Assembly (NCBI GenBank): GCA_038087875.1
Contig: CM075989.1
Location: 18,168,001-18,232,000 of the forward strand
Direction: 5' to 3'
DNA: 64,000 bases
DNA from: Malacoraja senta
Lineage: Eukaryota
Within the stretch, counting starts at the first letter, position 1, and every line of letters begins with the position of its first letter. Below the pieces are notes generated by a model. That model saw only the letters and a list, made by a program, of their open reading frames with translations. It searched no databases and was not told the origin of the DNA. This document shows positions 8,398-63,758 of the stretch, one piece after another. The position numbers and the translations under genes are program-made.

Positions 8398-9554
8398 GGA
8401 AAATGTGGCCTTCCTTACATTGACCCTTCAAAGGGCTTTATGTAAGCTCTGTTGGTGGGAGAATAGTGAGGAGATGTTGAACAGCTTTCTCCAGCAATTT
8501 CAATAGCAGCATTGAAGCTCTTGAAGAATGGCTAACATCTGAATTATTACAGAGAAGCATTACTGAAAGACTCAGGGCTTTACTTTCCCTTTCATAGAAT
8601 TGGACAGATTAAACCATGAGTAAAGTATCAAGAGTTTAAAATGCACTTCAGCTCAACAGCTACAAATCCCACCAGTTCTCCTGCTAACAAAAACAAGACA
8701 TGGCAGCTGGAATTACATTATTTTTCTCAATGGTCTACGCAGCCAGAAGGCAGAGAACTGAACAGTGGCTTGGGCCAGTGGCTTTTCTGTGCCGCCACTA
8801 ATGTTTGTGAAGTCATGGGTCACATCTGCCATCACTAATTGGCAAACCCATCAAGACCTTGAGTTGTTTATACAGTGCACTGAGCAGGCCATTCAGCCCA
8901 TCACCGTGTTTACTCTTTACATGAGAGGGACCGTTCCCATTCCTCTTTCCCCTGACCATGTTTAAACGCTATTCTATAAAGTGATGAATTATTTTGCTTC
9001 ATGATCCTGACTTCTACCTCTAGGGCACCCTACCTGTCTAGAGCGGTATGGTGGCGCAGCGGTAGAGTTGCTGTCTCACCGCGCCAGAGACCCGGGGTTC
9101 GAACCTGACTACGGGCGCTTGTCTGTACAGAGTTTGTACGTTCTCCCCGTGACCTGCGAGGGTTTTCTCTGGGATCTCAAGTTTTCTAACACACTCCAAA
9201 GACGTACAGATTTTTAGGCTAATTGGCTTGGTATAATTGTAAATTGTCCCTGGTGTGTGCAAGAGTGGAACTTGCTATCAAAACATGCAGGGGACGGGAC
9301 ACCAATTTTTTGCGCACACACACACACACGCGCGCGAGGCTTCGGAGGCTCAATCCAGCGCTAAATGCAGCTCAACTGCCTGTCTCACCGGGTTAACTAC
9401 AGCCCTGTCTGGACTGACGGGACACCAGCGCTGCTTCTCCGCGCTGCCCATATTTCCCGCAAGTCCAGGAAGGGTTGTAAGCTCACCTGGCGGGACAGGC
9501 AGGGTTAGCTGGGTTTAACGCTGCTTCTCTGCGCTGGCCCATCTGACTGCCGAC

Positions 9555-9581
9555 CAAAGATCCTATAGCGGAGGATCTTTG
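9555..9581. mobile_element. 27-bp hAT-like micro-insertion
   Basis: CAAAGATCCT-ATAGCGG-AGGATCTTTG flanked by CTGCCGAC / CTCCCGAC (7/8 duplication). Confidence 0.6.
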
Positions 9582-9676
9582 CTCCCGACCTCTCCGGCCA
9601 CCCGTGGCGGGGGGGGGGGGGGGGCAGCCGGTGGGGATGGGACAGCACCGGAGAGCCGGCCGGGATCGATCCTGGC

Positions 9677-9710
9677 CAAAGATACTAGAGGAGCTCCTCT
9701 AGTATCTTTG
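9677..9710. mobile_element. 34-bp perfectly palindromic hAT-like micro-insertion
   Basis: CAAAGATACTAGAGGAG-CTCCTCTAGTATCTTTG flanked by exact ATCCTGGC (9669-9676, 9711-9718). Confidence 0.72.
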
Positions 9711-10295
9711 ATCCTGGCTGCGGATGAAGCGCAGGTCTGTGCCACGTCTCCCTCCTCCAATCATCGCGCTGAATCATGTCCCGCCCCCATTGCCTGCTGA
9801 CCGACGTCTCTCTCGTCCAATCAGCACCCTAGATCATCAATCCCACCCCCACTGTCTCGCGGAAAGCGGAGATTTTAAAATCCGGATCACAAAAACTTGG
9901 GGGGGATGTCCCCCACCTCTCAAAACATGAGGGGGGACATGTCCCCTCTGCCCCCCCTGGGTTTTCCGCCCCTGGGTGTGTGTAGGATAGTGTTAGTGTG
10001 TGGGGATCGCTGGTTGGCACGGACTCGGTGGGCCGAAGGACCTCCTTCCGCACTGTATCTCTAAACTAAACTAAACTAAATGTCATGCTACCTCATGTTG
10101 GATCCATCAAATACTGCTTTCAATCTGATCCAATCCAATCTCTCACACACTTCATTATTCTGGGTGCCTCCATCCAATCGCTCTGTAATTTGCTGTTTTA
10201 ATAAAAATAACCTCCTTTGTTTGTGGTCTATTTGCTGTTTTCAGTAAGACAAGTGATGCTGTAGGGATTGTCCAAGCATCATGTGATCCCAGGTC

Positions 10296-21772: not shown

Positions 21773-21972
21773 NNNNNNNNNNNNNNNNNNNNNNNNNNNN
21801 NNNNNNNNNNNNNNNNNNNNNNNNNNNNNNNNNNNNNNNNNNNNNNNNNNNNNNNNNNNNNNNNNNNNNNNNNNNNNNNNNNNNNNNNNNNNNNNNNNNN
21901 NNNNNNNNNNNNNNNNNNNNNNNNNNNNNNNNNNNNNNNNNNNNNNNNNNNNNNNNNNNNNNNNNNNNNNNN
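21773..21972. other. Assembly gap (200 N)
   Basis: Run of N; true length unknown. Confidence 0.99.
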
Positions 21973-23426: not shown

Positions 23427-23503
23427 AATTTGAATATTAAATATTTGAAATATGAGAGTCTAGCCGCTAGACTCTCATATTTCAAATATTTAATATTCAA
23501 ATT
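23427..23503. repeat. Perfect 77-bp inverted repeat (38-bp arms, 1-nt spacer)
   Basis: AATTTGAATATTAAATATTTGAAATATGAGAGTCTAGC-C-GCTAGACTCTCATATTTCAAATATTTAATATTCAAATT. Confidence 0.95.
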
Positions 23504-56046: not shown

Positions 56047-57849
56047 GTATTTAGGATAGTGTTAGTGTACGGAGTGATTGCTGGTCGTCAAGGACTGCTT
56101 CCGCACTGGATCTTGAAACTAAACTATGAACTAAAAACTGAGGCACAGAATACGAAGGTAGATTAGATACGCTGGAACGGTAAACTACTCCACACCATAG
56201 CTTGAGTTGCGAGTGCAGTTCTGATCACCACGTTATCAGAGAGATATGACTGCCCCAGACAGAAAGCAGAAAAGATTTACGAGGATGCAGTCAGGGATGA
56301 AAAAATTGCATCTGTGAGGAAAGATTGGATAAGCTGGGGTTGTTTTAATTGGAGAAACAAGGAATTGGCAGATGCTGGTTTACACTGGAGTGATGCAGTG
56401 TTTAAGAAAGAACTGCAGATGCTGGAAAAACCGAAGGTGGACAAAAATGCTGGAGAAACTCTGCGGGTGAGGCAGCATCTATGGAGCGAAGGAATAAGTG
56501 ATGCTTCGGGTCGAGACCCAACCTGAATCGTCACCTATCCATATTCTCCAGAGGTGCTACTTGACCCGCTGAGGTACTCCAGCACTTGTTTTTTTTTTAG
56601 ATCAGTGTTTTTCCCAGGTGCTCCGGTTTCCTCCCACACTCCAAAGATGTACAGGTTTGTAGGTTAATTGGCTTCAGTAAAAATTGTAAATTGTCTCTAA
56701 TGTGTAGGATGGTGCTAGTGTATGGGTCGATCGCTGGTCGGCGCAGACGTGCTGGGCCGAAGGGCCTGTTTCTCCAAAAACTAAGTGTGGACACAATGGG
56801 TTAAACAGTCTGTTTCTGCATCTATGTTTTTCTGAGTTTCTACAAAGCTACCGTGGGTGAAAGCATTGAGCCCGTCTATAGCTCTTTGTTAGTGACAAAT
56901 AAAGCTTTCTGTGCAGCTGGCTACCCGACCATCCAGTAGCGTGACTTCTCAGACCAGAACACACACTTGCTGTATTCAGCAGATATATCGGTGATACACA
57001 GACCCATGAAACACCTACACCATTAGTGCCGAGCATTCATTACTTTTACTGTATCTTGCAATCTCCCATTCTTTGTTCCAAAGAATACCATCTGTCCAAC
57101 AGATAAACAAAGTGCTTGACGGATGAGGATTCCCCCGTGGGTTTCGGTGGGACCGGGTGAGATTAAAGATGACATTGATGACCTCTCTGGCCATGGACCA
57201 TGCACCACCGCCGGCCAATGCCATTTAGCTTTAGTTTTACTTTTAGAGATACAGCGTGGGAACAGGCCTTCGGCCCACCAGATCCGCGCCCACCAACGAC
57301 CACCCTGTGCACTAGTTCGATCCTACAATAGACACAACACACACAAAAAGCTGGAGAAACTCAGCCTGGTTTAAATCAAAGATAGACACAAAAAGCTGGA
57401 GCAACTCAGCGGGACAGGCAGCATCTCTGGAGAGAAGGAATGGGTGACGTTTTAGGGTCGAGACCCTTAATTCAGACTTCAGGTCTAAAGAAGGGTCTCG
57501 AGTTGAAACGTCGTCCATTCTTTCTCTCCAGAGATGCCGCCTGAGTTGCTCCAGCATTTTGTGTCTATCTTTGATTTAACCAGCATCTGCAGTTCCTTCC
57601 CTCACAGTTCTATCCCACACTCTAGAGGCAATTAGCCTACAAACCTGTGCGTCTTTGGAATGTGGGAGGAAACTGGGAGAACGTGCAAACTCCATACCGA
57701 CAGCACCCGTAGTCAGGATCAAACCCGGGTCTCCGTTGCTATGGGGCAGCAGCTCTACCAACTGCGCCACTGTGTGTCATCACGGGCCAGGTGATAGGCC
57801 TCAGCTATAGACTGCACTGGTGATATTTCCCTTGGTTCTTGGTTTCTTG

Positions 57850-63559: not shown

Positions 63560-63758
63560 TATGTGAGGAAGGAACTGCAGATGCTGGTTTAAGCCAAAGA
63601 TAGACACAAAAAGCTGGAGTAACTCAGCGGGACAGGCAACATCTCTGGAGAGAAGGAATGGGTGACGTTTCGGGTCGACTTGCAACATCACCCATTCCTT
63701 CTCTCCAGAGATGCTGCCTGTCCCGCTGAGTTACTCCAGCTTTTTGTGTCTATCTTTG
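63560..63758. mobile_element. Fold-back PLE mini-insertion
   Basis: ~74-bp near-perfect inverted arms (63596-63669 / 63684-63758); TTGCAATAATAT repeated at 63547-63558 and 63756-63767. Confidence 0.8.

Follow-up and report, generated by a model that had tools for sequence, protein, structure and literature searches.

Two short palindromes flanked by 8-bp duplications, termed sites A and B, are located within a multicopy element in the 64,000-nt stretch of Malacoraja senta DNA analysed here (the window). These palindromes are most probably donor-site excision footprints of longer transposons of the P superfamily (THAP/P-type). We infer the P membership of the parent elements and the depth of the cut (17 or 19 nt), whereas the excision chemistry and this type of scar are already known from Drosophila.

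Structure of sites A and B

Site A is a 27-bp scar (9555..9581) with perfect arms of 10 bp and a loop of 7 nt. It is flanked by 8-bp duplications at 9547..9554 and 9582..9589, the right copy of which differs from the left copy at one base (9584). Site B is a 34-bp scar (9677..9710) and a perfect palindrome of 17+17 nt, flanked by 8-bp duplications at 9669..9676 and 9711..9718, which match exactly. The target duplication is therefore retained on both sides of each scar, exactly at site B and at 7 of the 8 positions at site A, so that both palindromes, each with a target site duplication (TSD) of 8 bp, reported in a preliminary description of this DNA are present, with one mismatch at site A. 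The ends of the two sites are identical at 13 of their first 17 nt. The proposal that they represent two independent insertion events, each with an 8-bp duplication, is judged to be right.

We counted hairpins that have arms of 10 bp or more, do not exceed 60 bp and are flanked by an 8-bp repeat with no more than one mismatch, both in the window and in order-3 Markov simulations of it. The real window contains three such hairpins, which are site A, site B and the core of a 77-bp palindrome, the flanking 8-mer of which is self-complementary. In 60 simulations there is none, and lowering the required arm length to 8 bp yields two in 60 runs. Site B is the sole loop-free perfect palindrome longer than 20 bp in the window, and its fold z-score is -7.5. 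Sites A and B are genuine motifs that are far above chance.

The 77-bp palindrome (23427-23503) is AT-rich and nearly perfect, with 38-bp arms and a 1-nt loop. It lies where a truncated SINE copy is broken off on its 5' side, and its outer ends have no flanking duplication. It is possibly a fold-back repair product or the remnant of another element. A 38-bp segment with CA..TG ends (2126-2163) has a flanking duplication of 7/8 and a terminal match of just 7/10, and may represent an ancient, decayed scar or a chance occurrence. The window also contains an assembly gap of 200 bases (21773-21972).

Host element and interrupted SINE-like repeat

Both motifs lie within a host element of 715 bp (9260..9974), which is non-coding, multicopy and non-autonomous, with imperfect CA..TG terminal repeats that match at 7 of their first 10 nt. 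The host element breaks a SINE-like repeat that is recognised by self-BLAST and has about 25 copies in the window. The 5' part of this repeat is located at 9043..9259 on the forward strand, and the right host duplication (9975-9982) together with the SINE 3' part and its short-repeat tail at 9975..10082 on the same strand. The left 8-bp target duplication of the host element (9252..9259) matches 9975-9982 exactly, and the SINE junction is continuous without the host element in 19 other copies in the window. The three-deep nesting described earlier, with the motifs inside the host element and the host element with an exact 8-bp duplication inside the SINE, is thus borne out. We take the interrupted repeat to be a SINE from its appearance; a search of Rfam gives no match at E values up to 1. 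The host element is presumably hAT-like, as judged by its ends and duplication alone.

Contigs of related organisms indicate the same organisation. In one of them (X1), 59 contigs leave the element at 9974 and continue into heterogeneous flanks (agreement 0.37), and many joints from near 9250 to 9976-9981 in the relatives' contigs represent the empty SINE site. The host element is a multicopy mobile family. Its left end (9260-9315) is degenerate as compared to its right end, and the relatives' contigs match it poorly. The low contig depth in this region and the loose ends before 9311-9317 indicate that the left terminus of this copy is rearranged or mutated.

Sites A and B in related organisms

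Part of the host element is present in 20 of 24 sequencing runs, none of which contains half of its words. The contig sets of three related organisms (13141, 11927 and 10097 records) and a raw-read run (X22) were aligned. The raw-read run gives 13 reads, which align on simple repeats, and it is without the host element. The results given for the contigs are taken from those listed, namely 40 of 121 substitutions, 12 of 22 indels, 15 of 174 joints and 21 of 1286 loose ends. Contig depths are not equivalent to copy numbers, and the contig alignment favours forms near 34 bp and does not separate whole palindromes from the ends of long elements.

Site A is bridged by a relative's contig (record 21), which spans 9489-9619. 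Position 9584 is G in 91, 99 and 98% of the depth in the three organisms (57, 55 and 31 contigs), so that the match to the left site A duplication of the window is restored. Position 9549 in the left duplication is C in 10, 61 and 60% of the depth, the two higher values being those of X16 and X1, and the exact duplication is the majority form only in X15 when these unphased positions are considered. An empty site A is not found among the junctions listed for the relatives' contigs. Site A is inherited with the host element and fixed in many host copies of the relatives. Thus, inheritance with the host element, which had been raised earlier as a possibility, is demonstrated for site A by the bridging contig.

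Site B is missing from other host copies in the relatives' contigs. The empty site is detected in 40 contigs of X15 and 52 contigs of X16, in which a single copy of the 8-mer is left; the loose ends before 9710 are here identical to the part of the host that lies upstream of the left-hand duplication. The check for empty sites in host copies, which had been suggested earlier, is therefore positive for site B, and none is listed for site A. The left border of site B (9676/9677) is joined to heterogeneous flanks in 77 contigs of X1 (agreement 0.36), and 46 contigs of X16 have unrelated flanks behind the right border at 9710 (agreement 0.40). A central loss of 2 nt is detected at 9693 (6, 3 and 1 contigs) and at 9694 (5, 3 and 1 contigs), and these losses give 32-bp forms of 16+16 and 17+15, which account for approximately 7-18% of the depth, a value that is not a copy number. 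The 34-bp form seems to be more common than the 32-bp form among the alignable contigs.

A relative of site A and the search for parent elements

The left 19 nt of site A have one exact match in a metagenome collection, in contig L001, where a 33-bp hairpin (2962-2994) contains them as its left arm. Outside the search pattern this hairpin has 14 further bases, 13 of which are complementary to its left end, and by our own arithmetic such complementarity is expected by chance on the order of once in several million. Its flanking duplication is not clean, with a 7/8 match and an offset of 3 nt. L001 has a GC content of 39%, its longest stop-to-stop frame is at most 117 aa, and it has no other repeat in common with the window. 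These features suggest that L001 derives from a different, animal-like genome, as far as its sequence indicates. The match would then suggest that one P-like end family is present in distant animals, either by horizontal transfer or by long conservation.

A parent element or transposase was not recovered in scans of viral, prokaryotic and metagenome collections, which hardly sample animal DNA. The left 19 nt of site A have no match in viral contigs. The 17-nt arm of site B has 5 viral and 29 prokaryotic matches, none of which (0/34) is accompanied by an inverted end and a duplication; about 69 chance matches are expected in the prokaryotic set by our own arithmetic. The left 15 nt of site A have 45 viral matches, none with an inverted end and a duplication. 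A gapped pattern containing both ends has 26 viral matches, none with a duplication of 7/8 or 8/8, the best being 6/8 in AT-rich DNA. These viral and prokaryotic matches, the ends and duplications of which are unmatched, are taken as chance and rejected as parents. Inspection of the open reading frames of the window gives no recognisable candidate for a transposase-like coding sequence.

Probable excision by a P-type transposase

Drosophila P transposase cuts at the 3' tip of the element and, on the opposite strand, 17 nt further in, and generates an 8-bp TSD (PMC7776569). This staggered cut leaves 17-nt tails of each P end at the donor site, and accordingly the donor after excision has been described as 8-bp TSD + 17 + 17 + 8-bp TSD (PMC2895639). 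Among the junctions of that study, Table 1 gives joins of 30 bp (14 isolates), 32 bp (5 isolates) and shorter asymmetric forms, and Table 3 gives one 33-bp join and one blunt 34-bp join. The blunt 34-bp join is therefore rare in Drosophila as far as these tables show, with none in Table 1 and a single isolate in Table 3 (PMC2895639).

The smallest tail that explains site A, site B and the L001 hairpin without added bases is 17 nt, and a tail of 16 nt fails for all three. The halves lie within this tail length, site B being 17+17 and site A consisting of 17 nt of the left end and 10 nt of the right end. A tail of 19 nt with microhomologies of 2-4 nt gives 27, 33 and 34 bp equally well, an argument that is circular for palindromes. 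These scars might have been produced by a P-like enzyme whose stagger is 19 nt instead of 17 nt, a variant that we regard as less likely than not. The ends of sites A and B presumably fit the terminal motif of the P superfamily, which we take to be of the CANRG type. Their TSDs each match the Drosophila target core, with its ATRGTCCGGACWAT-like preference (PMC2577343), at only 5 of 8 positions (n=2), a weak point of the P-type reading.

The structure of the scars and the results from the relatives are consistent with the following series of events, for which we infer a P-type parent, a staggered cut and end joining. A P-like element would enter a host copy and make an 8-bp duplication, as the empty site shows for site B and as is presumed for site A. 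The transposase would excise this element with a stagger of about 17 nt, as has been shown in Drosophila and is presumed here, and the flanks would keep 3' tails. End joining would then unite the tails, either intact to give 17+17 = 34 (site B), or trimmed to give 17+10 = 27 (site A), 16+16 and 17+15 = 32 (relatives) and 33 (L001); alternatively, site A may be a 33-bp form that has lost 6 nt. The resulting scar would be inert and spread passively, and site A was gained by a host copy that was later amplified, as the bridging contigs show. Sites A and B would derive from two related families, the ends of which are alike at 13 of 17 nt. A unit of 34 bp or less has no duplex left (0 bp at 34 bp) when each end is cut at a depth of 17 nt, and P transposase binds internal 10-bp sites past the terminal repeat (PMC7776569). 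For both reasons, scars of this size should be immobile. The apparent abundance of 34-bp joins, which is at odds with the fly data, could reflect efficient full-length joining, passive amplification, alignment bias or a 19-nt tail. The failure to recover a parent or transposase in the viral, prokaryotic and metagenome scans, the imperfect duplication in L001 and the results for site A in the relatives' contigs also speak against the P-type reading.

Alternative explanations

The motifs had been assigned to hAT elements in the preliminary description. CA..TG ends fit hAT elements, and sites A and B have both these short repeats and the 8-bp duplication that hAT elements and related MITEs carry. 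This trait is not discriminating, because P elements, too, have CA..TG ends together with duplications of 8 bp (PMC2895639, PMC7776569). The hAT excision scars consist of palindromic P-nucleotides of the flank and retain no element ends (PMC5873905), an arrangement that is seen at neither site. For mobility, elements of the hAT type require 100-200 bp at either end (PMC10368747), and the units here are only 27-34 bp long. The motifs therefore fit neither the footprint of a hAT element nor a hAT micro-element that is mobile, and the hAT assignment is not upheld. The motifs might instead be MITEs of the hAT or another superfamily with 8-bp TSDs that were reduced by extreme internal deletion, through abortive gap repair or the collapse of a palindrome, their length of about 34 bp being coincidental. 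This explanation is unlikely. It agrees with the 8-bp TSD, which fits hAT (PMC10368747), with the derivation of site A from a 33-bp form by loss of 6 nt between two short repeats, and with the failure to find a transposase in the viral, prokaryotic and metagenome scans or among the open reading frames of the window. Against it, the observed lengths of 27, 32, 32, 33 and 34 bp are all equal to or slightly below 2 x 17, three of them need exactly 17, and hAT scars would again be flank P-nucleotides without element ends. This length argument is weaker than a census, because the alignment is biased to forms near 34 bp.

It is more improbable still that the motifs are micro-transposons of 27-34 bp that consist of ends only and are mobilised in trans. 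The empty site B, the many unrelated flanks that its ends abut in the relatives, the apparent dominance of 34 bp and the A-like unit in the unrelated DNA of L001 would all be expected of such units, but all of these are equally predicted by footprints. A 17-nt stagger leaves 0 bp in a 34-bp unit and fewer in shorter units, and the internal 10-bp sites used by P transposase and the 100-200 bp per end needed by hAT are both lacking in units of this size. Furthermore, the length of the centre varies (32, 33, 34 and 27 bp), as repair junctions do. Movement of ends-only units, for example as hairpins or cruciforms, by a transposase without internal binding sites has the same very low probability; if true, these units would be among the shortest known transposons and common to this lineage and the unrelated animal represented by L001. 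Chance hairpins or slippage within a repetitive host element can be practically dismissed. The host element does have short internal repeats near site A, but neither the 60 simulations without a single such hairpin nor the fold z-score of site B agrees with chance, and the empty site and the independent copies argue against it, the empty site effectively refuting it for site B. Excision footprints of P-type parents thus remain the preferred explanation. One option of the preliminary description, a footprint of a longer element, coincides with it, and its other option, a mobile micro-element consisting of terminal inverted repeats only, is unlikely. That description does not point out that 34 = 17+17 is what a P-type cut with a 17-nt stagger leaves.

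Significance

The long 17-nt staggered cut has been described as peculiar to Drosophila P transposase. Natural 17+17 scars in the genome of a cartilaginous fish would form a fossil record of the same type of cut being made in the germ line by P-like enzymes outside insects. A genome-wide histogram of scar lengths would reveal the cut depth of each family and its repair pathway without biochemistry. The earlier suggestion to search the genome with a regular expression for the CAAAGAT ends is unsafe as written, because CAAAGAT also ends another repeat. This repeat, with long inverted ends starting with CAAAGAT (57377-57573 and 63595-63758), has about 40 copies in the window and no 8-bp duplications. 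For annotation, a 'micro-MITE' of 27-34 bp that lies between duplications of 8 bp may prove to be an inert scar. A search of the titles and abstract openings of mostly open-access papers gave none that describes P-type footprints occurring naturally in a vertebrate, which is weak evidence of absence, and PMC2775673 and PMC3698922 contain no 'footprint' passage.

Comparison with known systems

The hAT (Ac/Ds) footprints resemble the motifs in that a palindromic scar is located at a donor site with an 8-bp TSD (PMC5873905). The hAT palindrome, as described there, is copied from the flank via a hairpin, without retention of an element end, whereas here both duplications are undamaged and the flank does not contain the sequence of the palindrome. 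The BuT5-type MITEs that are moved by P transposase (PMC3698922) are likewise non-coding, with P-type ends and 8-9-bp duplications. They are about 1 kb long with internal THAP binding sites according to that source, whereas the motifs here are ends only. Zebrafish Pdre/THAP9 is a vertebrate P-like element with 8-bp duplications and a transposase that has been shown to excise (PMC10983969, PMC7776569). The terminal repeats of Pdre2 are given as 13 bp in these sources, whereas pairing between the ends extends over at least 15-17 bp here.

The Drosophila P{wa} junctions (PMC2895639) resemble the motifs in that both 8-bp duplications are kept with at most 17 nt of each CA..TG end, and in the occurrence of 34-, 33- and 32-bp joins together with shorter asymmetric forms. 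The end sequence differs, being CAAAG here and CATG in Drosophila P. The full 34-bp join is seemingly frequent here, whereas it is rare in the fly genotypes reported in that study. The Drosophila junctions were induced, whereas the scars described here arose naturally, are inherited and have been amplified as part of a different element.
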